DNA of 24,330 nucleotides. Source: a virus. Location: UHGV virus genome UHGV-0242784, one strand, 5' to 3'. Positions 2,854 to 24,330 of this stretch are shown here, one piece after another; within the stretch, counting starts at the first letter, position 1; every line of letters starts with the position of its first letter. The notes under the pieces were generated by a model, which saw only the letters and a program-made list of their open reading frames with translations, was not told the DNA's origin and searched no databases. Made by a program: the position numbers and the translations under genes.

Positions 2854-3875
<1,022 letters not shown>

Positions 3876-4563: not shown

Positions 4564-4567
4564 TGAA

Positions 4568-5172: not shown

Positions 5173-5231
5173 TTGATTTTATTCGTAACAAGTATTTTTT
5201 ATATTTTAATAACATATTTAAAGCAGATAAT

Positions 5232-5256
5232 AAAAAACCCGCCTGAGCGGGTTTAA
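5232..5256. terminator. Rho-independent terminator (AACCCGC-CTGA-GCGGGTT) flanked by A- and T-tracts; bidirectional
   Basis: Perfect 7-bp stem with tetraloop at 5236-5253 read directly; flanked by AAAAAA and TTT. Confidence 0.6.
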
Positions 5257-5535
5257 TATTGTGGTACTTTTTGTGGGAGTCATCCACTTACGCACTTTGT
5301 TTTGCTATGCCAGCAGTTAGCTTCTGCTGTAAAACTATTCATGCAGCAAACCTGCACTTCACCACAATGGTTAGCATACTTTTCCTGATTAAGTTATTGC
5401 CAAATATGCTGGCCATTGTTTCATGTATTGGACCTCCTTACTATTTATTAAAGAGATCCAATATTCACCACTCTGTCTGTATCTCCACTCAGGCATCAGC
5501 CTTCTTCGTTATCGTATACAGACAAACTATGAATT

Positions 5536-5751
5536 TTAATCAGTAATTATGACATTTGCTGCTGCAGGACCTTTAGCACCACTCTCTACAGAGAAGGTAA
5601 CCTTTTGACCTTCAAATAAGGTTCGATAATTATCATTCTGAATCGCAGAAAAATGCACAAACACATCTTTACTACCATCAACAGGAGAAATAAAGCCAAA
5701 ACCTTTATCAGCGTTAAACCATTTTACTAAACCAGTCATTTTATTTGACAT
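5536..5751 (-). CDS. cspB: Cold-shock protein, CspB-like
   Basis: [53 protein letters not shown]...: cold-shock domain; AT-rich leader region upstream. Confidence 0.9.
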
Positions 5752-6051
5752 TCTACATTCCTTAACTTGAGCCTTTCGGCATAAATGGCTTGTATAACAG
5801 AAACGACTTCGTACTTAATTGGAGAGACTCAAAGAAGGAATAAGTGAATAACACCTGAAATGAGAACTGCTTTAGTAAACTACTTCGTATATCGTCTGTT
5901 CTTCAAACCGACGCAATCATTAACGCATAGTTGAACATATGAAGCAATGTTTATTTTAGACATCCAGCCATCTTCAACCCCATCAAAAAACTATAGCTTT
6001 CTTCAGGAACGTGTGTATAGTGCGCCAAGTTATCAGTATTAAGGAATTTTT

Positions 6052-6264
6052 TTGTCCCGTAAAATGACAGGAATTCTCAAAACCTTTGACGGCAAAAGCG
6101 GCAAAGGTCTTATAACCCCATCCGATGGTCGTATCGATGTCTAGCTTCATGTTTCAGCGCTCAATCTCCGCGATGCAGAAGAAATTACCACCGGATTACG
6201 CGTGGAATTTTGCCGGATAAATGGTCTGCGTGGACCATCAGCTGCCAATGTTTACCTTTCATGA
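6052..6264 (+). pseudogene. cspF: CspF-like cold-shock gene interrupted by an in-frame TAG at 6142-6144 (codon 27 from ATG 6064)
   Basis: Manual translation: (L)[68 protein letters not shown]; cold-shock-domain similarity continues through the stop; divergent from the cspB-like gene. Confidence 0.55.
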
Positions 6265-6550
6265 GCTATATTAAAGCTTTAACTTCAAGCCCCATCGAAT
6301 CAAACATGGAGAGTTTTCATGAATAAACCCGTCTGTCTTGATGACTGGTTGATTGGCTTTAAAAGCTTATGCTGTACTTTGACCTTAATAGCTCTGCTAA
6401 TAATGTAATAAGCAGACTCATTGTATCTATGGACATTGTACTGGAAGAAAACATTTTAAACATCAGGCAAAAAACAAAGTCACCCGATAAATAATAAGTA
6501 AACTAACATGAATCCCGTAATGAGATTCAACATCTCTATTACCCTATTTA

Positions 6551-6585
6551 AAGCACAAAAACCCGCTCATCAGCGGGTTTTCTAC
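6551..6585 (-). terminator. tR'-like terminator downstream of the late promoter (AACCCGC-TGATGA-GCGGGTT then U-tract on minus strand)
   Basis: Perfect 7-bp stem followed on the minus strand by TTTTTGTGCTTT; lies about 45 nt downstream of the PR'-like -10 element. Confidence 0.6.
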
Positions 6586-6626
6586 TTTTTCTTAACTTCG
6601 GGTATACAAAGCCCATCGTTGAAAAA

Positions 6627-6655
6627 ATTTTATCCATATTTTTTGAAAAATGCAA
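6627..6655 (-). promoter_or_regulatory. PR'-like late promoter: -35 TTGCAT, 17-nt spacer, -10 TAAAAT (minus strand)
   Basis: Hexamers read directly, immediately downstream of the Q gene stop; arrangement matches the Q-dependent late promoter plus short terminated leader of lambdoid phages. Confidence 0.55.
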
Positions 6656-6686
6656 GCATCACGTCGCCATCTTCGGCGAAAATCAC

Positions 6687-7439
6687 TTATCTCGTCACCT
6701 TTCTCAATTGTGCTTCAGCGTAAGATTCCTCCTGCCAGCACTTTGTAACCAGTTTATCAATGACATTTGCATATCCTTTATACCACTGATAATCACTCAG
6801 GTCCGGTACCAGCTTCTGGACATGATGCCGCGCCAGTGTGGTTGGTAAACGACTAAACCGTTTTCCATTGCAACGCCCACAAATCTTATAAACAGGTGTG
6901 CCATGAAGCCGGGTCCTTTTTTCATCCAGGACAATACCTTTACCCTTACACCCTCTGCACGCTGTGCTGACTTCTCCCTTACCATGGCAATGCTGACATA
7001 GTTCCTTCACCCACTCTTCTTTGATAACAGATTCCCCGCTTCTGGAGTGTTTCACCACTTCGCGCAATACATTATGAAATCCAGTACCAGCACAATGCTC
7101 ACAACGAGCCTTACTTGCCGCAGACCTGGAATAATCAGCAAAGGCAAAATTCACAAGGTAAGGAATAATCTGTAGCCGGGTTTCTTCACTCAATTTATTC
7201 AATGTCGGGTTATCCAGTGCCATCGCGTAATTGAGCAGACCTTCAATCGCAAACTGAGGATCCTGAACACCAACTTTTGCCAGGAATAAGGCAAACCCAA
7301 GCGGTGCTTTCGACTGCACCATCCCCTGCGCAGCCATCACATCCGTAATCGTTAAACCACCAGAGCCTGTCGCCGGTGCGTCATCACTCAATTTTGGAGA
7401 TTTTGGGGAGTAATATTTTGGTAAGGCTTCAAGGTTCAT
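6687..7439 (-). CDS. Late-gene antiterminator Q (phage-82/Qin QuuQ type, 250 aa)
   Basis: 250 aa with multiple CxxC zinc-binding pairs (CEHCAGTG, CQHCHGKG, CRGCKGKG, CGRCNGK); position directly upstream of the PR'-like promoter. Confidence 0.8.
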   Translation of the reverse strand: MNLEALPKYYSPKSPKLSDDAPATGSGGLTITDVMAAQGMVQSKAPLGFALFLAKVGVQDPQFAIEGLLNYAMALDNPTLNKLSEETRLQIIPYLVNFAFADYSRSAASKARCEHCAGTGFHNVLREVVKHSRSGESVIKEEWVKELCQHCHGKGEVSTACRGCKGKGIVLDEKRTRLHGTPVYKICGRCNGKRFSRLPTTLARHHVQKLVPDLSDYQWYKGYANVIDKLVTKCWQEESYAEAQLRKVTR

Positions 7440-7452
7440 GCTCGTTCTCCAC

Positions 7453-8448
7453 TTACGCCAGTACGCCTATTGCCAGCGCACGATCGATAAAACGAAATAT
7501 CAGCTCCAGCTGGGAGCCATACTTCTCTTCAAATGCCACGGTATCCGCATGCAGCTCGTCGTGATGCTTTCTGCACAAAGGCAACACAAAAAGGTCATGC
7601 GCTTTTGTACCCATTCCCCCCTGACCGTGGCCTATCAGGTGGTGGGGATCATCAGCAGGTTTTCCACAACATGCGCACGGCTGCGTCTTAACCCAGCGCG
7701 TGTACTTTTCATTAACCCAGCGGTGACGTTTTGGGCGTAACATAAAAGACTCCGGCGACTCCGGATCCACTTTCAGCGCCAGCACCTTTTTCGCCTTATC
7801 CTGGATGATGCTGGTGGCAGGAACCGAAGGCACAAGGTCACTTTCCCGGGTAACAGACGGCACAACAGGCTTCGGTAATCTCAGTGCCTTACGGGCTGCA
7901 CTTTCCGGTAAGGCATCCGCCAGATCATTACGAATCAGCCACCAGCACAGTTCCGGCATTGTCACAACATGACAGTCATCAAAACCGAGATCCCGACGCA
8001 CAACAGACAACACCCAGCGGGCACAGTTATCCGTTGCCATTGATTCCAGCCGTTCCGTGAACTGATCGCGCAGCTGGTTATCGCAGTGCCAGCACAGACG
8101 GATTGCGCCCGGAGCGTGTCGCATTGTTGTCATGTTCTCGCTGTGCCAGTCGGAATGAGGCCACTGGCAGCCTTTTTCACGAAGTAACCAGCTTTCAAGA
8201 CATTCCACGCCACCAGCACGACGGATCACTGCCTCATTGCGGAACACGGCCCGAACGGCAGGATCATCCGCCAGCGGTTGTGATGCCGCCGGAACGACAC
8301 CACTGGCGAAAGATGAATAACGTTCCGGCTCAGGCTCCAGCAGGACACGCCCCTGCATAAACAAGGGCATCAGCTCTGAACCTGGTCTGAACAATACGAT
8401 CCCCATACGCGGGGCAATTTCAGGGGTCAGTAGTGCTCTCACGGTCAC
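7453..8448 (-). CDS. DUF968/YdfU-like protein with C-terminal Cys/His cluster (possible HNH-like zinc module)
   Basis: 331 aa; C-terminal CACCGKPADDPHHLIGHGQGG...CRKHHDELH; position next to Q as in the Qin prophage (recalled). Confidence 0.65.
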   Translation of the reverse strand: MTVRALLTPEIAPRMGIVLFRPGSELMPLFMQGRVLLEPEPERYSSFASGVVPAASQPLADDPAVRAVFRNEAVIRRAGGVECLESWLLREKGCQWPHSDWHSENMTTMRHAPGAIRLCWHCDNQLRDQFTERLESMATDNCARWVLSVVRRDLGFDDCHVVTMPELCWWLIRNDLADALPESAARKALRLPKPVVPSVTRESDLVPSVPATSIIQDKAKKVLALKVDPESPESFMLRPKRHRWVNEKYTRWVKTQPCACCGKPADDPHHLIGHGQGGMGTKAHDLFVLPLCRKHHDELHADTVAFEEKYGSQLELIFRFIDRALAIGVLA

Positions 8449-8449
8449 C

Positions 8450-9277
8450 TCAATGAACGGTATCGAGCAGCTTTAACAGCTCAGGGAATCGGGATTCGAA
8501 GAAATGCGGCTGCGTCTCGCGCGGATTTGCAGGACTGGTGATGTTCTTGCCGAACATGCAGCCTTTCGCGGTCAGCGACCAGAATTTTTTGATGTTGTTA
8601 ATCGCGGTACGACTGTATCGTTCGCGTTGTTCAACGATCCCCAGCTTCGCCATCTGGTGATATGCCTGATTAGCCGTCAGGCGGATACCATACTGCTTCA
8701 GCAGTGCACTCAGCGACAGCGTAGGGCGGCTTGAACCATCTGGCGCATCAGCAGGTGCATCAATGGCATAGATCGGCATAAGTTCAGGAAGACCAGCTAC
8801 CTTTGATAATTTCTGGTATGCACCAAGTTTCGAGGAGTTTGACAGATTTAGAGTCTTCGCTGCTGATTCAAGCAGAATGACCCCGGATTTAATTTTGTCG
8901 GATGTGGTTTCTTCTGGTGATGAATTATGAAGCGCATCAAAAGTACGTATCACTTTTAAGCTGAATGCCGGGCTGATCCACATTGCATATGCATAGACCA
9001 GCTCTTTACAGACATACGTCCCACCATTGCGCCCCTGAATGGTGATGACAGGAATACTACGGGAATCTCCCGTAGTTTCTTCTTCCAATAATTCCACAAG
9101 AGCCTTCGTTTCAGGACGACGCATAAACTCGTGAACTTCCAGCGAACGGGAGGAGCGATTCTCACCAGCGGCAAGAAGAGCAGCTTTCTGAAGGTCGTTA
9201 AGACAGTAGTTAGATTCGAAGTACTGGCGCACAGAAACGCCATCAATTACAAGCAACTGATTCATTGGTTTCTCCAC
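8450..9277 (-). CDS. KilA-N domain protein (antirepressor/DNA-binding type)
   Basis: N-terminal region with ...GTYVCKELVYAYAMWISPAFSLKV... resembles the KilA-N signature; true start may be the internal Met MNQLLV. Confidence 0.65.
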   Translation of the reverse strand: MEKPMNQLLVIDGVSVRQYFESNYCLNDLQKAALLAAGENRSSRSLEVHEFMRRPETKALVELLEEETTGDSRSIPVITIQGRNGGTYVCKELVYAYAMWISPAFSLKVIRTFDALHNSSPEETTSDKIKSGVILLESAAKTLNLSNSSKLGAYQKLSKVAGLPELMPIYAIDAPADAPDGSSRPTLSLSALLKQYGIRLTANQAYHQMAKLGIVEQRERYSRTAINNIKKFWSLTAKGCMFGKNITSPANPRETQPHFFESRFPELLKLLDTVH

Positions 9278-9427
9278 AAATTTTTATCCACGAGCGGGAC
9301 TGCACTCCCTTTTCGTTGATGCAGGATGAACTTACTGCGATTTTTAATAGTTATCAAGGATACACTGTTCATAAATACAGTATCTTTAACGAGGTAATAC
9401 CCAAATTTAGGGTGTTGCTCAATTCCG

Positions 9428-9823
9428 TTACCGAGTTGCTAATTTGCAACTCGCTTTTTCGTACTTACTGATAGTGATCTCGACCTTCCCCTCCGGGATA
9501 ACCGGTCCCCACTCCACCAGCATTCTTTTCACCTGACTGTCGTCTTCCCACACCCCCGCGTGGGTCAGGGCGTCAAACAGCGCCTTGTTATAGTTGTCCA
9601 GATCGCGGATCCGGTTATCCGGAGGAAACAACACGATCTCCACTGAAGCAGGTGCCGACGTTGGTTTCGGCAGACGACGTAACTGCTCAACTATTGCTGC
9701 ACACGCCGCGCTCTGGAATTTTCGCCCCGCCGCGCTTATCAGGCTCTTACCAGCAAACGCCCCTTTGTTGGGGTGTCGCCAGTACGTGTTCACGCTGGGC
9801 GGAAAAGGCAGGATCAGCTTCAT
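9428..9823 (-). CDS. rusA: RusA-family Holliday-junction resolvase
   Basis: PFPPSVNTYW ... DLDNYNKALFDALTHAGVWEDDSQV: conserved RusA acidic catalytic motifs (DxDN) recognisable. Confidence 0.8.
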   Translation of the reverse strand: MKLILPFPPSVNTYWRHPNKGAFAGKSLISAAGRKFQSAACAAIVEQLRRLPKPTSAPASVEIVLFPPDNRIRDLDNYNKALFDALTHAGVWEDDSQVKRMLVEWGPVIPEGKVEITISKYEKASCKLATR

Positions 9824-10146
9824 ACTTTCAGGCCTCTCTCATGTAACCAATGGGCTGCACGCAGCCTGGCGTTTTCCTCACCGGCAAGCAGTGAGCGGAT
9901 AATCCCGACCGCCTCGCTGTCGTCGTCCTTCGCCACGGTATGAAGCGTGATCCCCCGGGCCACACCACGCTTTATCGTGATGACGCCTTTTTTCTCCAGT
10001 GCGCGAAGATGCTCCACCGCTGCATTCACTGAACGGTATCCCAGCATGGTTGCCACCTCCAGATTGGTTGGCGGGAAGCCACGTTCTTTCTGATAAGAAA
10101 TCAGCATATCCAGCACCTGCTGCTGGCATTGAGTTAACGTCGTCAT
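9820..10146 (-). CDS. LexA-type winged-helix DNA-binding domain protein lacking the S24 peptidase domain (108 aa)
   Basis: LTQCQQQVLDMLISYQKERGFPPTNLEVATMLGYRSVNAAVEHLRALEKKGVITIKRGVARGI parallels the LexA N-terminal domain; no Ser/Lys peptidase region follows. Confidence 0.55.
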   Translation of the reverse strand: MTTLTQCQQQVLDMLISYQKERGFPPTNLEVATMLGYRSVNAAVEHLRALEKKGVITIKRGVARGITLHTVAKDDDSEAVGIIRSLLAGEENARLRAAHWLHERGLKV

Positions 10147-10796
10147 GCCGCCATCTCCCTGACCAGTTTTTCCGCCTGCTGGCGAACCTGCGCCAGAAAC
10201 GCCTCACCACATGCCTCAAGTTCATCGCGCCCGATGTAGCTGATTGCCGGTCCCTTCCAGGTCTTGTCGAAAACAGCAATAGCACCAGCGAAGAAAGCGC
10301 CTGTCGGCACCTGCTTCTCATCTTTCGGGATAAACCAGGCAGGCAGTTCAAAACCAATACGCCCGCGAATAAAAGCAATATGATCTGCATCTTCCGGCCA
10401 CCACACTTCGCTGGTGGCAGCTTTGATCAGGAAAACATAGCGCCCGCCTTTATCACGCATGGCACTGGCATGTTTCATGATGTAACGCATGCCGGTGATG
10501 TATTGCCCCTCATGCTGACTGGCGCGGCTGTATGGGGGATTACCAAAGGCAGCACCTTTAAGCTCCGCAAGACGTTCTGACCAGTCATGCGCCAGCGCGT
10601 TGTCTTCCGCCGTGTAATACGCGGCACATTTGGCGTTATCACCATCGGTAAACAGATCCAGAACAAACGGGCCAAACAGGGTGTTAATCCCCCAGAAAAT
10701 GTTATCCGGCGTGCGCCACTGATCGCCCACTTCCTTCAGTTCATGGGCTGGTTTGTTCCGCAGTTCCACCAGTGCCTGACAATATTTATTACTCAT
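10143..10796 (-). CDS. Phage Dam-family N6-adenine DNA methyltransferase
   Basis: Motif GNPPYS (NPPY catalytic motif IV); start placed at Met12, which overlaps the upstream stop as TAATG; the ORF could instead start at 10829. Confidence 0.75.
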   Translation of the reverse strand: MSNKYCQALVELRNKPAHELKEVGDQWRTPDNIFWGINTLFGPFVLDLFTDGDNAKCAAYYTAEDNALAHDWSERLAELKGAAFGNPPYSRASQHEGQYITGMRYIMKHASAMRDKGGRYVFLIKAATSEVWWPEDADHIAFIRGRIGFELPAWFIPKDEKQVPTGAFFAGAIAVFDKTWKGPAISYIGRDELEACGEAFLAQVRQQAEKLVREMAA

Positions 10797-11290
10797 TAAG
10801 CCCCCACGTAATTCCCTGACAGATACCACTCTTCACCCGATGCAGCGCGCTTGCTGCTTTTCCGTAAGCACCGCTCACGACGCGCCAGAAAATTGTTTCG
10901 TTCTGGCTGGGAGTGGCTTTCACGGAATGCCGCCATCCACACGGTTGCAGCACGACGAAATAAGCCCCTGGACTCCAGTTCTTCAGCCTGGCGGGTCAGG
11001 CACAAAATCACCCGGGGATCGTTAGTGCCGACATAGAAATTGCGCACAGGTCTGGTTTCACGAACTGGTTGTGGTTCCGGCTCCTGCGCTCTCTCAGTCA
11101 GGCGCGGGAAATGTCTGCGTGTATCTCCTTCACAACGGTGAGCCACACGCCCGCTCTGACGTAACTTGCTTGCTGACTGCAGTACGCGCTGCCGTGAGTA
11201 ACCTGCAAAAGCATCCGCAATGTCTCCGGAAGTACACCCCGGATGGGCTTCAATGAATTTCTGAACGTCATTCAAAAGACTCATGCTCAC
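10796..11290 (-). CDS. Hypothetical protein (164 aa), basic C-terminal half
   Basis: ORF coupled to flanking genes by ATGA/TAATG overlaps; family not recognised. Confidence 0.55.
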   Translation of the reverse strand: MSMSLLNDVQKFIEAHPGCTSGDIADAFAGYSRQRVLQSASKLRQSGRVAHRCEGDTRRHFPRLTERAQEPEPQPVRETRPVRNFYVGTNDPRVILCLTRQAEELESRGLFRRAATVWMAAFRESHSQPERNNFLARRERCLRKSSKRAASGEEWYLSGNYVGA

Positions 11291-12228
11291 CCCCTGAATC
11301 CTGCCGGGATCTGGCTGTAGTCCACATTGTCGTAACTGGCTTTGAAGTACGGGTCTTCGCGTTTTTCTGTGTACGTGCTGATGGACGGCGATAAGCGCAG
11401 GGAAAGCTCATCCCATTTTTCCCGCAGCTTCGACGGGCTGAGCACGTTACGGCACCAGAACGGATCGCGGCTGATGCGGCTGTACATCTCGCAGATTTGT
11501 TTGTGAGTACGACCATCCTGCACACACATCAGGCGAATTTCGTTTGCCCAGGCTGTCCAGTTCGGTTCTTTGGGACGAACCACCTCGCCGTCACATTCGG
11601 CGGCCTGCTCGTACAGGGCGATGATTTTTTTCCAGAGCCACTGTGCGCAGGTCAAATCATCCTGCGTTCCCCACTGGCACTTTTTAGGGCTGAATACAAC
11701 CGCATCAGGATGGCGAGTTAAAAAATCCTGTTCAGCCGTCTGCGTGTCCGGTTGCGAAACGTCCGGACGAGAAGGTTTTTTATCTGACGGATCATATTTT
11801 GATTTTACTGACGGATCCCCGCCAGATTCTGACGGGTGAAAACCCGCTTTTTTGCCAGATTTCGACGCATCAAATTTTGACGGGTCAGATTTTGATGCGT
11901 CAGATTTTGACGGGTCAGAATCTGACAGTTGAGAAAATGCCGCGGCCTGAAGCTTCGCAACGTTAAGCTGATAAACATTCGACGCATTACGGTTACCCTG
12001 GCGACGCGCCTTACGCGTTAACCAGCCTTCTGCTTCCAGCCGTGCAATAGCCGTTCTGACGGTACTCATCCCCGCGCCAATCTGGCGGGCAATGGTTTCA
12101 ATCGATGGCCAGCACACACCTTCGTCATTACTGAAATCAGCCAGGCGGGCCATAATTGCCACACTGGATAATTTCATGCCTGACGCTGCGCAACCATCCC
12201 ATACATAGCCGGTTAATTTAGTGCTCAT
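11287..12228 (-). CDS. Replication initiation protein (N-terminal HTH; internal iteron-encoded SDPSK repeats)
   Basis: N-terminus (LSSVAIMARLADFSNDEGVCWPSIETIARQIGAGMSTVRTAIARLEAEGWL) resembles the HTH of phage/plasmid initiators; mid-protein repeat SDPSKSDASKSDPSKFDASKS is encoded by tandem DNA repeats. Confidence 0.75.
   Translation of the reverse strand: MSTKLTGYVWDGCAASGMKLSSVAIMARLADFSNDEGVCWPSIETIARQIGAGMSTVRTAIARLEAEGWLTRKARRQGNRNASNVYQLNVAKLQAAAFSQLSDSDPSKSDASKSDPSKFDASKSGKKAGFHPSESGGDPSVKSKYDPSDKKPSRPDVSQPDTQTAEQDFLTRHPDAVVFSPKKCQWGTQDDLTCAQWLWKKIIALYEQAAECDGEVVRPKEPNWTAWANEIRLMCVQDGRTHKQICEMYSRISRDPFWCRNVLSPSKLREKWDELSLRLSPSISTYTEKREDPYFKASYDNVDYSQIPAGFRG
11776..11930. repeat. Putative origin iterons: five tandem 15-bp repeats (consensus CAGATTTTGACGGGT, 11856-11930) plus related copies at 11784-11837, inside the replication gene
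   Basis: Direct reading: cagatttcgacgcat / caaattttgacgggt / cagattttgatgcgt / cagattttgacgggt / cagaatctgacagtt; arrangement analogous to ori-lambda inside gene O. Confidence 0.6.
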
Positions 12229-12237
12229 GACCGACCT

Positions 12238-12576
12238 CTATTTCCCTGAATTTACGACGAAACTGTTCGAGCGGGCTGAAGCACTCATGCTCATAGCCTT
12301 CGCGGAGGTAGATAACCCGTTGTGTTTCCGGTTCCCAACGAATGACTCTGACGGGTACTCCGTAGTGATCTTTGAACCAGCGGTTAACTTGTCGCAAAGG
12401 ACTGTCTCCTTCTGCCGGTTGAAATCACCCACAGCCCACTCAGCAAAGCTGTGGGTTACAATTTCCCTGTCACCTGGTACATTTACTGCATAGCAATACT
12501 CCACCTTCGCTTTTCCACCCGGTACAGGAAGCGCAATCAGTTGCGAGCGACGGTAGTGTGTTGTTAAACTGTTCAT
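12238..12576 (-). CDS. Hypothetical protein (112 aa)
   Basis: Start ATG overlaps the upstream stop (ATGA) and the ORF ends 10 nt before the replication gene, consistent with an operon; the overlapping plus-strand ORF 12221-12493 is rejected. Confidence 0.4.
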
Positions 12577-13244
12577 GCGTTAGTTTCTCCACAACCAGAA
12601 GCAATCGACGCCACGACGCCCGGAGCTGCACACTCGCGGGCGTCATTACTTTCTGAAACGCAAAAAATTTTGTAGACAAGTGCTGCATGCTCCTGCAGCT
12701 TCGAAATTGAGAGGTACAGCTCGTCGTTAATTGCTGTCTTCTCATGCGGTTCCACTACACCGTCTTCGATTGCCGAACGAATCTGTTTTGAATAACTGCC
12801 GATCTGTTCAATGACTTCCAGTAAACGCTGGTTAATATCGGCATTGTCCACATCCTCGACGTCAGGAAGAGACACAAAGACGCCATTTGCAGACTGCGCC
12901 ACAGCGTCAGCAATGAAGTGAGTGCCACCAGCACGTTGTAAAATCATTGCCCATCCCAGCGGGAAAATCTGATCGCCATCGGCACGAAGGCGGTTAAATA
13001 ATGCGTTCTCTGTTACATCCAGCCAGTCAGCTGCTTCAGCGTAACCACCCGGCAACGCTGCGATAGTTTTTCTGACAGCTTTCACGTACCACTCAGGCTG
13101 TTTTTCTACTTTCCAGTGATACTTACCCACGGTTAGCCTCATCGTTCTGTGGTTTCTGTTAATCGATTTATCCATTAGATTTTTCATAAAGCTCAGGTTT
13201 AAATGGCAACCGTCCGCAAGTTCTATATGCTGCTTCTGCTGCAC
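12573..13244 (-). CDS. YdaT-like protein in the cII position (start uncertain; ORF overlaps the cro-like gene by 77 nt if 13244 is used)
   Basis: ORF track; N-terminus [12 protein letters not shown] resembles my recollection of Rac YdaT; alternative starts at 13187, 13175 or 13142. Confidence 0.5.
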
Positions 13245-13368
13245 GTCCTTTTGGAATTAACTGGCCCGGACGGTTTCGCCACTGATAAACGGCCTCAGTT
13301 GTTATGCCGAAAAAAGCAGCAACTTTCTCAATACTGCCGAAGTAGCTTTCGATATCGTCAGTTGTCAT
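13168..13368 (-). CDS. Cro/YdaS-like HTH regulator (66 aa), divergent from cI
   Basis: HTH-like segment IEKVAAFFGITTEAVYQWRN; SD GGAGGG 5 nt upstream of the ATG; divergent arrangement with the repressor gene. Confidence 0.65.
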   Translation of the reverse strand: MTTDDIESYFGSIEKVAAFFGITTEAVYQWRNRPGQLIPKGRAAEAAYRTCGRLPFKPELYEKSNG

Positions 13369-13377
13369 ACGCCCTCC

Positions 13378-13445
13378 AAAACTAAGTTTTATTAGATGTT
13401 AATTATCAATCTATCTTAGGTCAATAAAAACTAAGATTACTTAGT
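13378..13445. promoter_or_regulatory. Immunity-region operators and PR-like promoter: O1 AAAACTAAGTTTT (13378-13390), O2 ACTAAGATTACTTAGT (13430-13445), PR -10 TAACAT / -35 TTGACC on minus strand (13396-13424)
   Basis: Palindromes and hexamers read directly in the 98-bp cI/cro-like intergenic region; both operators share the ACTAAG half-site. Confidence 0.6.
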
Positions 13446-13466
13446 AATTTAAGAAATGGTGCTCCT

Positions 13467-14093
13467 ATGGAAACGGTTGGTCAGCGTATAAAAGCTCTGA
13501 GAAGGGTTACCAGAACGTCCCAGAAAGAATTGGGTAAATTTTGTGGGGTAAGTGACGTTGCTGTGGGGTACTGGGAAAAAGACATCAATGTCCCTGGCGG
13601 GGAAGCACTTTCGAAATTAGCGAAGTTCTTTAATACGTCAATAGATTACATTCTTTATGGTGCTGAGTTTGAAGGCAAACTAGTCACAAACATGCGCAGA
13701 GTTCCTGTAATTTCGTGGGTTCAGGCTGGGCAGTTTACTGAGTGCAGGGCAGCAGAAGTGTTTAGTGAAGTGGACAAGTGGGTAGATACATCTTTAAAGA
13801 TTGGTGATAACTCATTTGCATTAGAAGTTAAAGGCGACTCCATGACTAATCCTAATGGCCTCCCAACAATACCAGAAGGTGCAACAGTGATTGTAGATCC
13901 TGATGCAGAACCTCGTCATGGAAAAATAGTCATTGCTCGACTTGATGGAACGAACGAAGCTACAGTAAAAAAATTAGTCATCGATGGTCCTCAAAAGTTT
14001 TTAGTGCCATTAAATCCACGGTATCCCAACATCCCAATCAATGGTAATTGCCTGATCATTGGTGTAGTCAAAGGAGTTCAATACGAACTCTAG
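13467..14093 (+). CDS. cI: CI-type prophage repressor (HTH-XRE N-domain + S24 LexA-like autopeptidase C-domain)
   Basis: N-terminal HTH (QKELGKFCGVSDVAVGYWE), linker, C-terminal S24 domain with GDSM serine motif (EVKGDSMTNP) and a downstream Lys (KKLV); divergent from the cro-like gene. Confidence 0.9.
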   Translation: METVGQRIKALRRVTRTSQKELGKFCGVSDVAVGYWEKDINVPGGEALSKLAKFFNTSIDYILYGAEFEGKLVTNMRRVPVISWVQAGQFTECRAAEVFSEVDKWVDTSLKIGDNSFALEVKGDSMTNPNGLPTIPEGATVIVDPDAEPRHGKIVIARLDGTNEATVKKLVIDGPQKFLVPLNPRYPNIPINGNCLIIGVVKGVQYEL

Positions 14094-16695: not shown

Positions 16696-17232
16696 ATGTC
16701 ATTTATTAAAACTTTTTCCGGGAAGCATTTTTATTATGACAGGATAAATAAAGACAACATCGATATTAACGATATCGCGGTTTCCCTTTCAAATATCTGT
16801 CGCTTTGCTGGTCATCTTTCACACTTCTACAGCGTTGCCCAACATGCGGTGCTTTGCAGCCAGCTGGTACCGGAGGAGTTTGCTTTTGAAGCGTTAATGC
16901 ATGATGCAACAGAAGCGTATTGCCAGGACATCCCCGCACCACTGAAACGCCTTCTTCCTGACTATAAACGGATGGAAGAAAAAATAGATGCCGTAATCCG
17001 TGAGAAATACGGGTTACCCCCAGTTATGAGTACGCCCGTGAAATATGCCGATCTTATCATGCTGGCAACCGAACGCCGCGATCTCGGGCTTGATGATGGC
17101 TCTTTCTGGCCTGTACTGGAAGGCATCCCGGCAACAGAGATGTTCAACGTGATTCCACTGGCACCTGGCCATGCCTACGGGATGTTTATGGAACGTTTTA
17201 ACGAGTTATCGGAGTTACGCAAATGCGCATGA
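16696..17232 (+). CDS. yfdR: HD-domain phosphohydrolase, YfdR-like (5'-deoxynucleotidase family, 178 aa)
   Basis: HD-domain metal ligands visible (GHLSH ... MHDATE ... D); SD GGAGA 5 nt upstream of ATG 16696; the ORF track's upstream extension is rejected. Confidence 0.7.
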   Translation: MSFIKTFSGKHFYYDRINKDNIDINDIAVSLSNICRFAGHLSHFYSVAQHAVLCSQLVPEEFAFEALMHDATEAYCQDIPAPLKRLLPDYKRMEEKIDAVIREKYGLPPVMSTPVKYADLIMLATERRDLGLDDGSFWPVLEGIPATEMFNVIPLAPGHAYGMFMERFNELSELRKCA

Positions 17233-17585
17233 ATGTTTTCGAAATGGAAGGGTTTCTTCGCGGGAAATGTGTACCGCGAGATCTGAAAGTGAACGAAACA
17301 AATGCTGAGTACCTGGTACGTAAATTCGACGCGCTTGAAGCTAAATGTGCGGCACTGGAAAACAAAATAATACCAGTGTCAGCTGAACTGCCACCAGCAA
17401 ATGAAAGTGTTCTGTTATTTGATGCTAACGGAGAAGGCTGGCTGATTGGCTGGCGTTCTCTCTGGTACACCTGGGGACAAAAAGAAACCGGAGAATGGCA
17501 GTGGACATTTCAGGTCGGGGACCTTGAAAACTTCAATATCACTCACTGGGCAGTAATGCCCAAAGCGCCGGAGGCTGGAGCATAA
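17223..17585 (+). CDS. YfdS-like hypothetical protein (120 aa)
   Basis: ORF overlapping the previous gene's end; Trp-rich C-terminus; size and order as in the yfd cluster. Confidence 0.6.
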   Translation: MRMNVFEMEGFLRGKCVPRDLKVNETNAEYLVRKFDALEAKCAALENKIIPVSAELPPANESVLLFDANGEGWLIGWRSLWYTWGQKETGEWQWTFQVGDLENFNITHWAVMPKAPEAGA

Positions 17586-18205
17586 TGACCACATTTACCA
17601 ATAAAGAACTGATTAAAGAAATCAAAGAACGAATCAGCAGCCTAGAGGTTCGAGACGATATTGAGCGCCGTGCTTATGAAATTGCTCTGGCATCGCTGGA
17701 AGAGGAGCCGGTGGCATGGCTGCATTCAGACAATGGCTTAGGTATTCCGGCAATAACCAGGAGCAAAAACATTGCTGACAGTTGGTTATCAATGGGCTGG
17801 TATGTTCAGCCGCTATATATAGCCAAGCCAGTACTGGTGGTGCCAGATGCTCGTCCGTCTTTAAATAATGGCATAGTCGGTTTTGATGAAGGCTGGAACG
17901 CCTGCCGCGCCACCATGCTTCATGGTGCCAAACCTGTAAGCCAGACTTACAAGTTGAACAAGCTGTCGGGCAACTCTCCGGTAACTCAGGATGGTTGGAT
18001 AAGCTGTAGTGAGCGAATGCCGAACGATAAACAGTATGTTTGGTGTTGGGGTAAGTCTTACGGCTGGACTGAGTGCGATACCTTCGAAGGGTATTACGAT
18101 TGGTCGAGAAACAAATGGTGGGCAGTTACAGACGATGGGGAAGAACCGGCATCGAAAGTAACCCACTGGATGCCGCTACCGGAGCCACCGCAGGAGGTGA
18201 AGTAA
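17585..18205 (+). CDS. DUF551-domain protein (206 aa)
   Basis: C-terminal WISCSERMPND...WAVTDDGEE...VTHWMPLPEPP matches the DUF551 signature as I recall it; start coupled to the upstream stop (TAATG). Confidence 0.65.
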   Translation: MTTFTNKELIKEIKERISSLEVRDDIERRAYEIALASLEEEPVAWLHSDNGLGIPAITRSKNIADSWLSMGWYVQPLYIAKPVLVVPDARPSLNNGIVGFDEGWNACRATMLHGAKPVSQTYKLNKLSGNSPVTQDGWISCSERMPNDKQYVWCWGKSYGWTECDTFEGYYDWSRNKWWAVTDDGEEPASKVTHWMPLPEPPQEVK

Positions 18206-18399
18206 TGAACAACTTAATGACAACTAAACAAGTCGCCGACTTCTGTGGTGTTTCAGTATCGACCGTTCTTCGCTGGAACAGCGTAAACAGGAGAACTGGC
18301 CAGAAATACAGGCCTGACTTTCCAGATCCTGATATTAAATCCTGCCCAAATAAATGGGCATCACGCAAGATATACAGGTTTGCTGGAGTTATTGAGTGA
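18205..18399 (+). CDS. Small HTH protein, excisionase/AlpA-like (64 aa)
   Basis: ATG 18205 overlaps the upstream stop (TAATG) with SD AGGAGGTGA; HTH segment TKQVADFCGVSVSTVLRW typical of the Xis/AlpA family. Confidence 0.6.
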   Translation: MNNLMTTKQVADFCGVSVSTVLRWNSVNRRTGQKYRPDFPDPDIKSCPNKWASRKIYRFAGVIE

Positions 18400-18433
18400 T
18401 GGGTATTAGCTCATATCAGAACTAATACCCATC
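18398..18433. repeat. Perfect 12-bp inverted repeat (GATGGGTATTAG ... CTAATACCCATC, 12-nt loop) starting in the stop codon of the HTH gene
   Basis: Read directly; no adjacent U-tract on either strand. Confidence 0.6.
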
Positions 18434-18601
18434 AATGACACAGAGCCAACTACCCACCCTGTGTCAGGGGCTAACTTTTAACACCATAATTCACCGCTAG
18501 ATAAAAACTGTATTGCATTGCACGAGCGGCGCAGCATTATCAGTTAGAGTGTCTTTACCTTGTTAGGCTCCACAGTTCGCACTGTCCAACGCCTGTCACT
18601 T

Positions 18602-21600
18602 TCACACGCTGCGCCTTCGAGAATATTCATTTAATCGCTGATAACGAACATCTTGCTCCAGTTGTGGAGCAGCTTGAACAATTTGAAGCAAGCATTGCCC
18701 CAACTCTCGAGGCCCCCAGTGTTGTTCGGCAATCACGGCATTCAGCAGGGATAGAGCGTCCGCAGGATATCGGCTGCAAATATCTGATTCTAGCAAAAGG
18801 CGAACGTCGTAGCTAAGGTGTTCGAGCGGTTGCAGCCAGTCCTGCACCACTGCCAAAGCCGCCGGAAATTCACCTCGGGCAGCAATCACCATACGAGTCA
18901 ACGATTCGGATATGCGTGGGGTGGCCAAGTTGCGGGACTTTGGCCAAACCTGTTGCCAAAATGGCTGGACACGATTTTTCCAATACTCCTCGCGCTGATC
19001 GCCCGCACCTTCAAGTGCCTGGTATAACGCCTGCGCGGCTACCTCCAGACCTTCTTGTGGAAGAGCACTAATTGCCGTTCGGAACTCCTCCACGGTATAT
19101 CCCTCGGTAGGGCCCAGAGCTGCATAAGTCAGGAAAGTAGCGAATTGCTGCCGGTGCTCGCCAAGATCAGAATAGTGATTGGCGCTCTCCAAAAAATCTG
19201 ACTTGAAAGCTATCAGCAACGGTTCATACAGGCGTGGCGACCAGAGGAAGCCTTCCCACACAGCTTTTGCTTCGACGGGATTACTCCAAGCAAACAAGGG
19301 CAATAGATACTGTTCGGTCCAAGGTCGATCTACGCGAAAAAATGCGATCAGCCGCGACCCCAGCAACACCCGACCATGGCGGAATAGCTCTATCTGTACA
19401 TTACACAATTTGGTGAAAAGTGTTTTCAATTCAACAGGAAGCAAATCATTGTCATTCGGGTTCTGTTTGAACCATAGGGTGATCAGTGATTGCGTGACAT
19501 GCCCAATGGGATGATTGATCGCCGTAGAAACAGGATCATAGGTCTCAATTCCGTTTCGAATGGTGCTAGACTCTGGGCTTGTTTCTATCATCAGAACCCG
19601 ACGACAAAGGGCCAGTAGAATCTCCTCGTGGCAGAGGATGGTCTTCGAAGCCTCCTCCATCCACCAAGTGACAGCGTGGGAAATCTCCTGAAGTACTGCG
19701 TCAGGCATGTCAAGCACCAACGGTGCGGCGTACCGCCACGAACGCAAAATCATCCCTGGTTCAGCCCAAGTCTGCAGAGCTTCACGCCACCGACCAACAG
19801 GCCACACATCATCTTGTGATAGTTTACTTAACGCATACAGACTGTGAAAAAAGCGCGTACGGCAAACATCACTCCAAGTGTCCTCATAGAAAGGCAGTCT
19901 TTCTGGCATAGGCTTTGCGAGCCATTGCACTAATTCCTGCCACTTACGGGGCGCAATGTCGACATCTATATTCTCCTCGAAGCCTGGATCACCGGTTCCG
20001 CTCATCCAGTGAGAGAATTCATCACGCTCGTTGGTTGCCAGTTGCCATTTTGGGTATGCTGTGGATATTTCCGTCAAACGTGTAGCCGCAGACTCTCCCA
20101 AAACAAGGCCCGCTCCCCTGAGCTTCGCTAGACACAACCAGACGGAATGAGCCACCAAATAATGCCACCTGTCTGCTTCCAAATTATCCTCGTACATCTC
20201 GCGCGGAGGCCCTGCCAAGATAGCAGTTTCCAGACGCTCTTGTGCAATTCCTGTCAGATGTCGTCCCTGCAAAACAAACAGTCTGAATACCTCTCGCCCA
20301 GTATCCGTGGCCCACAACCACCATGAACCGTCCTCTAACAACCAATTAACCCACCGCTCAGGTGGTATGCAGTTGTCTTGGCTTGCGGCAAACAGTGCCA
20401 GACGTTTGAAGGTGGGATATGGCAACTCAAACCAATTCTGAGCAATGCGCGTGGCCTGATCGCTGTCTTTGGCTCGAACGGCTAACCATGAATCCCGAAG
20501 TAATTCAATCAGGCTCACCCAATCGCGGAACCCCCGGTTCTGCCAGTGCGGAGTGATGGACGGCAAATCCCAATGCGAGCGGTCGTGACGATCGTCGGAC
20601 TCTCCCAACTCCCGCAACAAGTCCAGTGCATCACGCAACAACTGCTGAAAATCTTCCAACAGGTATGGCAAGGACGATTTCCATGACTCGTCAGCAAGGT
20701 CGAACAGGGTTGAACGTACGTAATCAGCAGTCAGCACCAGCTCCCAATCCACCAATTGCTTGATTCGCAAGGGTTCATCAGTGCTGCTCGAATCGTCTTC
20801 ACTATAGCGAAACGGCCGCCTCAACATAACCTTGGGAGAAAGCAACTCGCGTAACTCCAAGCGCAATGTAGTCGTCAAGCCTTCATTCTTTAAGCGGTTT
20901 TGCCAACGATACAAATCCAGGTTCTGCAATGGCGATTTCACACGACCACTAAGCAGAAGCCGCCATAAAGTAGACATAGGTGGACCAGGAATAGCCAGGG
21001 GGGAATGCAAGAGAATTTCATCTAACTCAAAAGTCTTACGCTCCCGCATCAGTGCTGCTAAGCGATCTAGTTCGCTCTCAATCAGAAACATCCAACGGTC
21101 GTGTATTTGTCCGCCGCGTTCAGCAATCCATATGATCAACCTAGGGTCGCCCAGATAACGAACTAGCCAACGGGCTATATGGGACATTACGTCATCCCAT
21201 TTGCTAGCACTGACACATCCAGAAACCAGCGACATCTGCAGGGCCAGCTCATAGGGCGCAGGACGCTGAACCAGACTGAATCGGAGTTTCGGGTCAATTT
21301 CGACATGCGGAGATACACAAAAGCGTGGCAGATCGCTGTATTTAAATCGTTCGTCCGAGAAAGCTTTCAATAACCAATCCAGCGGCGGTGCAGGATTGAG
21401 TTCCGCAAAGCGTTTTGCTGGTAAACCTGATTTATCTGACAAGGCCCACAACATCCGACCAACGAAATCGTCCTGACGAGTGCTGTCCTGCGGGCGGGCC
21501 AGAGCATGTTTGACGACTATAGCCTCTTTGCCCTGTATACCATCTCGATAAGTATCTGCCCAAGCGTGCAACGTTTGATGCAGCACTGAATGATCAGTGG

Positions 21601-22429
21601 AGCCCGCCGGTACGGTGTAAAGGATAGGAGTGACCCCTTTGGCCTCCCACTCGATGGCTTTCCGGTGCTCCTGCCCCGGCTCACACTCCCCCAGTGCCCA
21701 TACTTGTGGTGTGACTTCACCGAGCCTCCGATCTGCTGCAAGCGCATCCATCATGTAGCGCAGTACCGGGTCGTTGATGCTGTAGCCAACGAAGCAGACC
21801 ACATAGTTACGAAATAACTCACTCACAAAGCGAGCTGCCCAACGCTCAGTGAGATAAGCCAAGCCAAAGTCACCGCTGGTAACAACCAGACGATTCAGGG
21901 CAGTATCATCCGCCTTTTCCGGTAACAGCCCATGCAGGTATACAAGTCCATCCCAGCGGCTGTTTTTTGGAATTGGCAGCATCGGCGCTACATAGGCCTG
22001 AAAAGCCTGGCCTGTACGTTTAGCTGCCACATGAAAGAGACGGTCAAAGTTGGTAGTGACCAATCGAAGGGCACCCTCGCGGCTACGGGCTAAACGTAAC
22101 AGCGCCGCCTGAGTATCAATAGCGCCCCTACGACGGAGCTTTGGCTTAAGGGCTTTTTCCAACGCGCGTCGGACGGCTATACGCTGCCCTGGTAAGCGCC
22201 GTTCCAGCAAATCTAATGTGCCGTCAAATTGCCCACGCTCGAAAACCTCACGCTCAATTTCTGAAAGTGTTGTTCCGTTCCTCTGGTAAATTAGTTCTAC
22301 CAACCCTTTGAAACCAGGTAAACCAGCAGGGTAGGAAATGCCTGCTCCACAGAAGAACACAACGCGCCCTTCCTCGTGCGCCTGCAAAAGCTCATCAGGA
22401 ATATCAGGGCCGTTGGTAATGAATTGCAT
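18602..22429 (-). CDS. Large SIR2-domain protein (1275 aa): N-terminal defence-type SIR2 NADase-like domain + ~1000-aa helical C-terminal region (DSR-like candidate)
   Basis: Uninterrupted 3.8-kb ORF with SD AGGAGG 7 nt upstream; SIR2 motifs in the first ~250 aa: VVFFCGAGIS, VTTNFDRLFH, VYLHGLL, VCFVGYSINDPVL; no Walker A (GxxxxGK[ST]) found by eye. Confidence 0.85.
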   Translation of the reverse strand: MQFITNGPDIPDELLQAHEEGRVVFFCGAGISYPAGLPGFKGLVELIYQRNGTTLSEIEREVFERGQFDGTLDLLERRLPGQRIAVRRALEKALKPKLRRRGAIDTQAALLRLARSREGALRLVTTNFDRLFHVAAKRTGQAFQAYVAPMLPIPKNSRWDGLVYLHGLLPEKADDTALNRLVVTSGDFGLAYLTERWAARFVSELFRNYVVCFVGYSINDPVLRYMMDALAADRRLGEVTPQVWALGECEPGQEHRKAIEWEAKGVTPILYTVPAGSTDHSVLHQTLHAWADTYRDGIQGKEAIVVKHALARPQDSTRQDDFVGRMLWALSDKSGLPAKRFAELNPAPPLDWLLKAFSDERFKYSDLPRFCVSPHVEIDPKLRFSLVQRPAPYELALQMSLVSGCVSASKWDDVMSHIARWLVRYLGDPRLIIWIAERGGQIHDRWMFLIESELDRLAALMRERKTFELDEILLHSPLAIPGPPMSTLWRLLLSGRVKSPLQNLDLYRWQNRLKNEGLTTTLRLELRELLSPKVMLRRPFRYSEDDSSSTDEPLRIKQLVDWELVLTADYVRSTLFDLADESWKSSLPYLLEDFQQLLRDALDLLRELGESDDRHDRSHWDLPSITPHWQNRGFRDWVSLIELLRDSWLAVRAKDSDQATRIAQNWFELPYPTFKRLALFAASQDNCIPPERWVNWLLEDGSWWLWATDTGREVFRLFVLQGRHLTGIAQERLETAILAGPPREMYEDNLEADRWHYLVAHSVWLCLAKLRGAGLVLGESAATRLTEISTAYPKWQLATNERDEFSHWMSGTGDPGFEENIDVDIAPRKWQELVQWLAKPMPERLPFYEDTWSDVCRTRFFHSLYALSKLSQDDVWPVGRWREALQTWAEPGMILRSWRYAAPLVLDMPDAVLQEISHAVTWWMEEASKTILCHEEILLALCRRVLMIETSPESSTIRNGIETYDPVSTAINHPIGHVTQSLITLWFKQNPNDNDLLPVELKTLFTKLCNVQIELFRHGRVLLGSRLIAFFRVDRPWTEQYLLPLFAWSNPVEAKAVWEGFLWSPRLYEPLLIAFKSDFLESANHYSDLGEHRQQFATFLTYAALGPTEGYTVEEFRTAISALPQEGLEVAAQALYQALEGAGDQREEYWKNRVQPFWQQVWPKSRNLATPRISESLTRMVIAARGEFPAALAVVQDWLQPLEHLSYDVRLLLESDICSRYPADALSLLNAVIAEQHWGPRELGQCLLQIVQAAPQLEQDVRYQRLNEYSRRRSV

Positions 22430-22611
22430 TCCTTTTCCTCCTATCCAATGTGCACGTTCATTCGAGTAAATGAAGGCAAGGGGTTACATCTTATTATACC
22501 GACCGTGCAAATCCGGCTTCCTAGCAAGCTACTTTACTTGCCAACTCATAATGTCCGAACTCCGAACAAAGCGGACTGCTAGATTTGATTGCGTTCTAGC
22601 TACGCAAAATA

Positions 22612-23835
22612 TCATTTCGAGCCTGAACGAGTACAAGTAACAATCGATTCAACTCTCTCCCACCATGCCTGGTAGGCTTTACGCTGTTCTTCTAGATAAT
22701 CACTCTTGTCATAAACTTGCCATACACCTGGCAGTTTATGACCGAGCATTATTTCAGCAATATGAGGCGCAGTAAGATCAGAAAAGTTTGTTCGTGCTGT
22801 TCGTCTCAAATCATGAAGAGACCAATGAGGAAATTGATACCCCAAACGCCGCCATGCGTACTGCATTAAATTGTAAGGTAGCGACTGCAATGATGTCCGA
22901 CCAACTGGTTCCCTGCTTCCTTCCTTAGTAAAAAGCATATCGGAACCGTTGTTCATAGAGATAACGTATTTTATAAGCTCTTCAACCGGTTCAATAATGG
23001 GCCGCTTTAGCGGTTCGCCTGTTATATCCCCTGTCTTATGTCGTTCTGGTGGTACAGTCCATATTTTATTAATGAAATCAAAATCGTCCACCTTGGCAGT
23101 AATTAGCTCTGAACTACGGCAACCAAAATGCAGCAATAGTTTAATGAAGGCCCGGTATTTAGGAACCATTCGAGAACCATCGATCGCAGCATAAAGGATT
23201 TTAATTTCATCATGTGTCAGAAACCGTTTCTTCTGACCTTTACGGATATCCATATCTTTACCCGTGATATCCGACAGCGGGCGAGTTTCAATGAGCTTTC
23301 TCTTATACGCCCAGACATGGGCCTGCTTTGCGTTAATTAGCAATCGGTCTGCTATTGCTGGAGTCTTAGTGCTAAGAGGCTCCAGGACTTCTAACCAATC
23401 ATGCAATGTAGCTGCATCGTGAGGGATATTCCCGATTTTAGAGAACAGGTGCAGCTCAAACGAGCGGAGTATCTGTTCAGAACCTTTTTTATTTTTTACA
23501 CAATATGCTTCATACCAAGCACGGATCACAGATTCTACCGTCATGGCTTCAGTAGCTTTACGTTTTTCTGCCAGCTTGACCAATCGTGGATTGCGGTTTG
23601 ACTCGAGTTCACCACGAAGACGGATAACTTCTTCTCTGGCCTCTTTTAGTCCAGTTGCCGGGTAAGTTCCGATATCAAGACGCTCACCTTTCCCCGCCCA
23701 CTGATAACGATATTGGAACACTACGCGACCTTTCGGTGATACTCTAACAGACAGACCATCACGATCGGATTTAACCAAAACCTTATCACGTTCCTTTCCA
23801 ACAACTGAACGCAACCACGCATCAGACAGCGCCAT
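22612..23835 (-). CDS. int: Tyrosine recombinase / integrase (P4-type, 407 aa)
   Basis: Catalytic residues in the expected order (R ... HDLRRT ... Y near the C-terminus); N-terminal arm-binding-like region; located at the prophage end next to the host junction. Confidence 0.9.
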   Translation of the reverse strand: MALSDAWLRSVVGKERDKVLVKSDRDGLSVRVSPKGRVVFQYRYQWAGKGERLDIGTYPATGLKEAREEVIRLRGELESNRNPRLVKLAEKRKATEAMTVESVIRAWYEAYCVKNKKGSEQILRSFELHLFSKIGNIPHDAATLHDWLEVLEPLSTKTPAIADRLLINAKQAHVWAYKRKLIETRPLSDITGKDMDIRKGQKKRFLTHDEIKILYAAIDGSRMVPKYRAFIKLLLHFGCRSSELITAKVDDFDFINKIWTVPPERHKTGDITGEPLKRPIIEPVEELIKYVISMNNGSDMLFTKEGSREPVGRTSLQSLPYNLMQYAWRRLGYQFPHWSLHDLRRTARTNFSDLTAPHIAEIMLGHKLPGVWQVYDKSDYLEEQRKAYQAWWERVESIVTCTRSGSK

Positions 23836-23844
23836 TACTCACCT

Positions 23845-24032
23845 TGTACAAATAACAAAAAACCTCTGCTGTTTTGTACATTATGTACAAGCACATGTAC
23901 AGATTTTTGATGAAAGTAACCTGATCAATTTAAAGTTACATGAAAGAATTTTCAATCAAAGAAATCACATAACATCATGTTATTAAATGAGTTATATAAT
24001 TATCACTCAATTAATTGAAAGGATTTTGAAAG
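23845..24032. promoter_or_regulatory. AT-rich int upstream / attL arm region with four TGTACA palindromes (23845-23901) and four TGAAAG direct repeats (23911, 23941, 24016, 24027)
   Basis: Repeats read directly; TGTACATTATGTACA (23875-23889) is a perfect 15-bp palindrome; TGAAAGAATTTT (23941-23952) and TGAAAGGATTTT (24016-24027) are near-identical. Confidence 0.45.
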
Positions 24033-24055
24033 AGTAAAAGAGCTTTTATTTGGGC

Positions 24056-24130
24056 TTAATTATTGGGGTGAGAAATAATGGCAAAAGTGCGGCGCTTCGC
24101 CACCTCTTGCAAATAAGGAGACAACGTCAT
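24056..24130 (-). pseudogene. prfC: Truncated 5' end of host prfC (release factor 3): 22 native codons then phage-derived N-N-stop
   Basis: Minus strand from 24130 translates [24 protein letters not shown]; I recognise [22 protein letters not shown](DAGKTT) as the RF3 N-terminus; sequence turns AT-rich and phage-like after CACCC (~24065). Confidence 0.75.
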
Positions 24131-24227
24131 AATTCTTTCTTCTTGAGTAAGCGGCATCGCGCCGCGCTTGTTGAAAACGAAAAATTGCGGCTATTTTACC
24201 CATCAACGGGGGGGAGGCAATCAGTGT

Positions 24228-24330
24228 TTACACAGGAGCTGCTCCAGTTCGTGCAACGAAGAAACGGTCCAGGTGGGCGCGATGCCACACCGTAGGCATT
24301 CCCCCTACTGTTTCATGGGCGCCGTTATTC
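24228..24330 (-). CDS. Possible 3' end of the host gene upstream of prfC (partial, continues right of window)
   Basis: Open minus-strand frame from the window edge to a TAA at 24230-24228, ~97 bp upstream of the prfC start; identity not recognised. Confidence 0.3.
   Translation of the reverse strand, partial: NNGAHETVGGMPTVWHRAHLDRFFVARTGAAPV

Follow-up and report, generated by a model that had tools for sequence, protein, structure and literature searches.

Dsr1 (defence-associated sirtuin 1), credited to Gao et al. in 2020, is an anti-phage defence protein that already has a name, profile models in databases and an experimental record. Here we analysed a 24,330-nucleotide stretch of viral DNA, UHGV virus genome UHGV-0242784 (the window), in which an open reading frame (ORF) for a protein of 1,275 amino acids very probably represents an intact dsr1, the single-gene anti-phage cargo of an Escherichia coli lambdoid prophage, acting through capsid sensing and loss of nicotinamide adenine dinucleotide (NAD+). 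Dsr1 defends against phages and depletes NAD+; in Bacillus subtilis the depletion was transient, cultures did not collapse and cells survived (Garb et al., 10.1101/2021.12.14.472415). A phage pathway for NAD+ reconstitution, NARP1, abolishes this defence (10.1101/2024.02.11.579819). For the E. coli protein EcDsr1 (WP_029488749.1), a 2026 preprint (PMC12803255) reports protection against a few Drexlerviridae phages, activation, in a 73-gene screen, by the major capsid protein of ZL19 and no other product, killing of cells on co-expression with the capsid protein and loss of toxicity when the NAD+-hydrolysing (NADase) domain is disrupted. According to the same preprint, the EcDsr1 sensor is homologous to that of the STAND family member Avs7, and Dsr1 lacks the STAND nucleoside triphosphatase (NTPase).

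Several described systems share parts of this layout. DSR2 of B. subtilis (PDB 8wy8, 8k98 and others) resembles the window protein in having an N-terminal NADase domain of the SIR2 fold with the same catalytic His, and resembles Dsr1 in being encoded by a single gene and in carrying a helical C-terminal sensor for a phage structural protein. The two sensors, however, are unrelated by sequence and have no detectable likeness of fold beyond helical repeats, and the triggers differ: tail tube protein for DSR2 and, as reported, major capsid protein for EcDsr1 (PMC12803255). Avs7 has a reportedly homologous sensor and the same reported trigger as EcDsr1, the Drexlerviridae major capsid protein (PMC12803255), but it combines these with a STAND NTPase, incorporated EF-Tu and other effectors such as the Cap4 nuclease, whereas Dsr1 uses SIR2 and has no NTPase. 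The closest solved SIR2 domains, by both sequence and fold, are those of KomC (profile E = 4.5e-10; Foldseek E = 1e-10) and ThsA. Unlike Dsr1, these two proteins are activated by small-molecule signals or partner proteins, form filaments and lack a solenoid sensor of about 975 residues. Compared with Dsr1 as described (EcDsr1, NCBIfam NF041818 and the PADLOC Dsr1 model), the window protein belongs to the same family, has the same length and architecture and is likewise encoded by a single gene, and nothing of substance differs. The locus is thus not new, and matters as annotation: it places a functional-looking gene of a known abortive-infection or NAD+-depletion type on a lambdoid prophage. 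How a sensor without an NTPase activates SIR2 is a question for the Dsr1 family in general and not for this locus in particular.

Identity of the gene

The reading frame is 3,828 nt long and open throughout, and its product contains all of the residues that are invariant in a 69-member family alignment. On NF041818, the equivalog that NCBIfam titles ‘anti-phage defense-associated sirtuin Dsr1’, the protein scores 2,054.9 bits, residues 1–1271 aligning to model positions 1–1263 of 1263, where the cutoff is 1,400 bits. The PADLOC Dsr1 model PDLC02183 gives 2,729 bits and is covered from 1 to 1275 of 1275 positions; a second PADLOC Dsr1 model gives 644 bits. An open frame of 3.8 kb with a product that exceeds 2,000 bits on curated models is far beyond chance. 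NCBI and UniRef both name the exact window protein Dsr1 (its 90% cluster has 418 members), and RefSeq uses dsr1 (WP_039720274.1) for the 100%-identical gene in E. coli chromosomes; PHROGs also contains the protein, in a family that is phage-borne and has no known function. Because three profile libraries, the RefSeq name and the full-length model matches agree, we assign the gene to Dsr1, and every sequence-testable defining feature of that family is present in the protein.

An earlier note on this DNA, made from the letters alone, had proposed a candidate single-gene, DSR-like SIR2 system and had left undecided whether it was DSR1, DSR2 or a distinct variant. The proposal is borne out by the Dsr1 models, the SIR2 fold and the lack of a conserved partner, and the choice falls on DSR1, with DSR2 and a new variant both set aside. 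The note had located a 1,275-amino-acid ORF with four SIR2 motifs, which lie where it placed them, and a strong Shine–Dalgarno sequence of the gene’s own, which is the AGGAGG listed in Table 1.

The gene is carried by 76 of 5,426 complete E. coli genomes. In 67 of these 76 the allele has a nucleotide identity of at least 99%, and in 7 it lies between 90 and 95%. Copies identical to that of the window occur in 11 listed genome records, several of which look like repeated entries for the same chicken isolates. Nine residues separate the window allele from the representative sequence of its 90% cluster, and eight of these fall within the sensor.

SIR2 effector and helical sensor

The motifs of the N-terminal domain are VVFFCGAGIS (residues 23–32), TTNFD (125–129), LHG (165–167) and FVGYS (213–217). 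The profile search that the earlier note had suggested returned Pfam SIR2_2 at residues 123–269 (E = 8.9e-23), the sole Pfam family in the protein in a scan at E ≤ 1, along with the end-to-end Dsr1 matches given above. Across the 69 family members, which reach down to 37% identity, G28, G30, T125, N127, D129, H166 and G167 are invariant. In PDB sequence searches TTNFD, which contains Asn127, aligned with TTNYD in the NADase KomC, and His166 aligned with the catalytic His146 of KomC, which is mutated in PDB 9xvc, ‘KomC(H146N)’. An AlphaFold2 model of residues 1–320 has a predicted local distance difference test score (pLDDT) of 92.7 and a predicted template modelling score (pTM) of 0.90; its top Foldseek matches were defence NADases throughout, namely KomC, ThsA and DSR2 (SIR2 domain), with E of about 1e-10 and template modelling (TM) scores of 0.6–0.7. 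As modelled, the N terminus has a defence-type SIR2 fold, of the kind that the note had recognized from the motifs and compared with ThsA and DSR2. A canonical sirtuin deacylase (CobB/Sir2, defined by PF02146 or an equivalog and a Cys4 ribbon) was considered and ruled out. The protein has no CxxC zinc ribbon and reaches only about 11 bits (E = 0.17–0.18) on the NCBIfam deacylase models, the cutoffs of which are 221–243 bits; it is not a housekeeping sirtuin.

The remainder of the protein matches no Pfam family between residues 300 and 1275, even at E ≤ 10. It is rich in Leu, Trp and Arg, as the note had remarked (14.2%, 4.4% and 8.1%, respectively, of residues 281–1275), and AlphaFold2 models it as mostly helical with a few short strands (pLDDT 90.0, pTM 0.83). 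The confident helical model, in which no NTPase domain is present, agrees with the note’s expectation of a DSR-type helical sensor rather than a STAND or Avs architecture. In the comparison with DSR2 that the note had proposed for this part, PDB fold matches of the sensor model were generic HEAT/ARM solenoids only, with DSR2 absent among them. Sequence searches of the PDB retrieved SIR2 domains and no relative of the sensor, whether the query was the single sequence or the 69-member profile. Judged from the model, the sensor does not resemble that of DSR2, and the searched copy of the PDB contains no solved structure specifically related to it.

Searched alone, residues 300–1275 had 2,771 relatives at E ≤ 0.001 among 1.84 billion representatives clustered at 50%. 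All 150 listed matches align over the sensor, and the full-length ones do so from about residue 300 to the C terminus in proteins of about 1,250 amino acids. Eight relatives with shorter or longer N-terminal regions were scanned with Pfam; six of the eight have SIR2_2, mostly N-terminal or truncated at the N terminus, two have no significant domain and none of the eight has another effector domain. These alignments point to a large family in which a SIR2 domain is uniformly joined to the sensor.

Relatives and single-gene status

Relatives that are 78–85% identical are found in Rahnella, Vibrio cholerae, Marinobacter and Nitrogeniibacter, the last of these a betaproteobacterium. Identity of 77–84% over 1,275 residues extends across Enterobacterales, Vibrio, Marinobacter, Halothiobacillus, Thauera, Ferrovum and Nitrogeniibacter. 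The pattern points to a recent, wide horizontal spread of one Dsr1 allele group across gamma- and betaproteobacteria.

The genomic settings are diverse. In Rahnella the gene lies in an integrase island with insertion sequence (IS) elements, in Marinobacter with an integrase and IS91, and in Nitrogeniibacter between the ATP-synthase operon and a chemotaxis gene. In V. cholerae it belongs to a Tn7-like element with Csy3 and Csy4 genes; this element (positions 1–13524 of the locus) encodes TnsA-like, rve and TniB proteins, the type I-F Cas proteins Csy3 and Csy4 and a VspR-like regulator. No conserved partner gene is present across the dsr1 neighbourhoods of the five genera (E. coli and the four others), and dsr1 is the only gene in the cassette that is exchanged in the E. 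coli prophage (see below). Judged from these neighbourhoods, dsr1 is a single-gene system. The earlier note had named an obligatory partner gene or an NTPase domain as findings that would speak against its proposal; neither was found, in the five genera or in the Pfam and Walker A searches.

Upstream region and proposed mechanism

A perfect TATAAT stands at positions 22493–22498, upstream of dsr1. Conservation of the upstream sequence reaches about 110 nt, including the TATAAT, in Rahnella and about 70 nt in V. cholerae. Because the upstream region lies inside the cassette and is conserved across genera, we suggest that dsr1 carries its own expression signals, and the window allele would be expressed from this region. 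The leader itself (TTGCACGGTCGGTATAAT ... GGATAGGAGGAAAAGGA; window 22430–22540, minus strand) is about as well conserved as the coding sequence, or better, when E. coli, Rahnella and V. cholerae are compared. It may be a promoter or a regulatory leader; an Rfam search found no RNA family near dsr1 or matching the leader.

In the proposed mechanism, the C-terminal alpha-solenoid of about 975 residues would bind a phage structural protein, the reported trigger of EcDsr1 being the T1-like (Drexlerviridae) major capsid protein. Binding of the capsid protein would switch on the N-terminal SIR2 domain, which would hydrolyse NAD+ to adenosine diphosphate ribose (ADP-ribose) and nicotinamide by means of Asn127 and His166. 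The loss of NAD+ would then stop phage replication and shield the lysogen population from superinfection. For the window allele, we infer NAD+ depletion and the capsid trigger from the literature on other Dsr1 proteins; the prophage thus described probably makes its host immune to T1-like phages. It is conceivable, if rather unlikely, that the eight sensor differences of this allele let it recognize another set of capsids, or that Dsr1, like Avs7, needs EF-Tu. If so, natural alleles would offer a handle on how a solenoid without an NTPase activates SIR2.

Alternative explanations

A protein of the DSR2 type, that is, a SIR2 NADase with a C-terminal domain that senses the tail tube protein, would have the same order of an N-terminal SIR2 domain and a long helical C terminus, and the SIR2 domain model does superpose on the SIR2 domain of DSR2 (E of about 5e-10, TM 0.6–0.7). 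The window protein nevertheless matches no Dsr2 model among its PADLOC matches at E ≤ 1 and has a C-terminal domain unlike that of DSR2; membership of that family is refuted, and we consider this reading extremely unlikely. There is hardly any prospect that the protein is instead a sensor driven by an NTPase, of the SIR2–STAND (Avs5-like) or another type, in which the earlier note overlooked a degenerate P-loop. The reported homology of the Dsr1 and Avs7 sensors (PMC12803255) would speak for it, but the same preprint says that Dsr1 lacks the STAND NTPase, and the window protein agrees: the Walker A pattern [AG]x4GK[ST] does not occur anywhere in its 1,275 residues, Pfam finds no NTPase, NACHT or AAA family (E ≤ 1 for the whole protein, E ≤ 10 for residues 300–1275) and the region after SIR2 is modelled as helical, without a Rossmann-like NTPase core. 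The earlier note, having seen no P-loop, was right on this point. As for a multi-gene SIR2 system that needs a partner (Thoeris ThsA/ThsB, SIR2–HerA or SIR2–pAgo), the PADLOC matches to ThsA, SIR2 components and LmuA are weak (E from 3e-5 to 3e-3 for ThsA and the SIR2 components) and do not extend beyond the SIR2 part; the surroundings, with the excisionase and the integrase on either side, contain no gene for TIR, HerA or Argonaute; and the neighbours in the four other genera share nothing with each other, while the exchanged cassette contains one gene. We give this explanation next to no weight. Two of its members were rejected individually: Thoeris ThsA, which has a SLOG/STALD domain and an adjacent ThsB, on the SIR2-only match of E = 3e-5 and the excisionase and integrase neighbours, and SIR2–HerA on the lack of an adjacent HerA ATPase gene in the window or in homologous loci.

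The gene could also be intact but silent or inactive, a relic with no current role in defence. Disrupted copies exist in E. coli, with IS1203 in CUVET18-789 and a truncation in OkiPb01713, and, in a matching genome, several prophage genes in the neighbourhood are pseudogenes. A sigma-70 consensus promoter scan called no site upstream of dsr1, and no terminator was found between the integrase gene and dsr1, so expression of dsr1 might depend on read-through from int. These last two results also weigh against our reading of an autonomous, active dsr1, as do two features of the published work: the phenotypes differ, with a transient fall in NAD+ without death for DSR1 in B. subtilis against the killing of cells reported in PMC12803255, and the transfer of function presumes that the tested EcDsr1 (WP_029488749.1) is identical or near to the window protein. 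Against a relic stand the fully open frame of the window with every invariant residue present, the complete identity in the 11 records mentioned above (apparent duplicates from chicken isolates among them) and the conservation across genera of an upstream region that bears a strong Shine–Dalgarno sequence and the TATAAT. On balance a relic is very unlikely, and we retain the reading of the gene as an intact and probably functional dsr1.

Prophage context and cargo exchange

The features of the locus are collected in Table 1. The tyrosine integrase gene is the immediate upstream neighbour of dsr1 and shares its strand, and the excisionase gene, which is convergent with dsr1, has no annotation in the RefSeq record of an identical prophage. 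The earlier note had dsr1 alone between an integrase and a convergent xis-like gene, in the integrase-proximal cargo position; Pfam and phrog_1553 identify the two flanking genes as such, and the cargo position is seen both in annotated E. coli contexts and in the comparison of cassettes.

Table 1 Features of the dsr1 locus in the window and of related loci
Feature	Position	Strand	Description	Evidence
dsr1 coding sequence	18602..22429	-	1,275 amino acids plus stop; ATG start	ORF list; NCBIfam, PADLOC, RefSeq
N-terminal SIR2 NADase effector domain (predicted)	21533..22429	-	about amino acids 1-299	Pfam, AlphaFold2, Foldseek
Codon of Asn127 (TTNFD)	22049..22051	-	putative catalytic residue	motif position, alignment
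Codon of His166 (LHG)	21932..21934	-	putative catalytic residue	motif position, alignment
C-terminal sensor region (predicted)	18605..21532	-	amino acids 300-1275, mostly alpha-solenoid	AlphaFold2 model
Shine–Dalgarno AGGAGG	22437..22442	-	7 nt before the dsr1 ATG	read from sequence
Upstream region travelling with dsr1	22430..22566	-	137 nt; putative promoter	inside cassette boundary
Equivalent of the leader, Rahnella	about 7885-8000 of the Rahnella locus			
Equivalent of the leader, V. cholerae	about 5930-6000 of the V. cholerae locus			
dsr1 cargo cassette, replaceable	18447..22566		4,120 bp	blastn against Stx2c_PV98-693
Tyrosine integrase	22612..23835	-	407 amino acids	Pfam Arm-DNA-bind_3, Phage_int_M, Phage_integrase; RefSeq WP_001218277.1
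Excisionase	18205..18399	+	64 amino acids; convergent with dsr1	phrog_1553, E = 7.7e-36, 1-64 on 1-63/65; weak Pfam HTH_17
Attachment-site core	24066..24079		14 bp; prophage end	‘duplication due to insertion’ repeat_region in LC727881, LC727876

The boundaries of the cassette follow from blastn alignment with the phage Stx2c_PV98-693, to which the flanks 17001–18446 and 22567–24286 align at about 95%; the interval between them measures 1,859 bp in that phage. Guanine–cytosine (GC) content is 51.9% in the dsr1 cassette compared with 44.4% in the integrase gene and 46.9% in the upstream prophage genes. In Stx2c phages with the same integrase and excisionase, the dsr1 slot contains an AT-rich ORF of 517 amino acids on the opposite strand (Stx2c_PV98-693 3627–5180, plus strand). 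The N terminus of its product looks hydrophobic by eye; Pfam and PADLOC give no match, and the single match is to phrog_13820, a family of unknown function. This gene is a candidate uncharacterized cargo or defence gene of the same hotspot. In this phage family, to which Stx2c-converting phages belong, cargo is swapped in the slot between int and xis, which holds either dsr1 or the 517-amino-acid gene.

In three E. coli genomes with an annotated context, dsr1 lies between the integrase gene and the early-left genes yfdP/Q/R/S, DUF551 and xis. The lambdoid prophage is inserted next to yjjG in all three, one of which carries a 94% dsr1 allele, and the host gene yjjG comes after the prophage end in all matching E. 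coli genomes. The last 44 bases of the window (24287–24330) depart abruptly from the yjjG sequence of every matching E. coli genome, and bases 24270–24330 (61 nt) have no match in the 5,426 complete E. coli genomes. It appears that either yjjG of the source carries an interruption 66 nt before its 3′ end or an assembly junction closes the window.

Elsewhere in the window, the DUF551 gene (17585–18205, plus strand) is an intact ORF of 206 amino acids. In RefSeq, two matching E. coli genomes have the DUF551 region annotated as a pair of partial pseudogene fragments, although the window has zero differences from the first of these genomes over 16726–24286. Two RNA leaders of the cspA-type thermoregulator family RF01766 (113.7 and 156.7 bits) lie at 2227–2642 and 5473–5912, both on the minus strand, and precede the prophage cold-shock genes cspI and cspB; they are known features.

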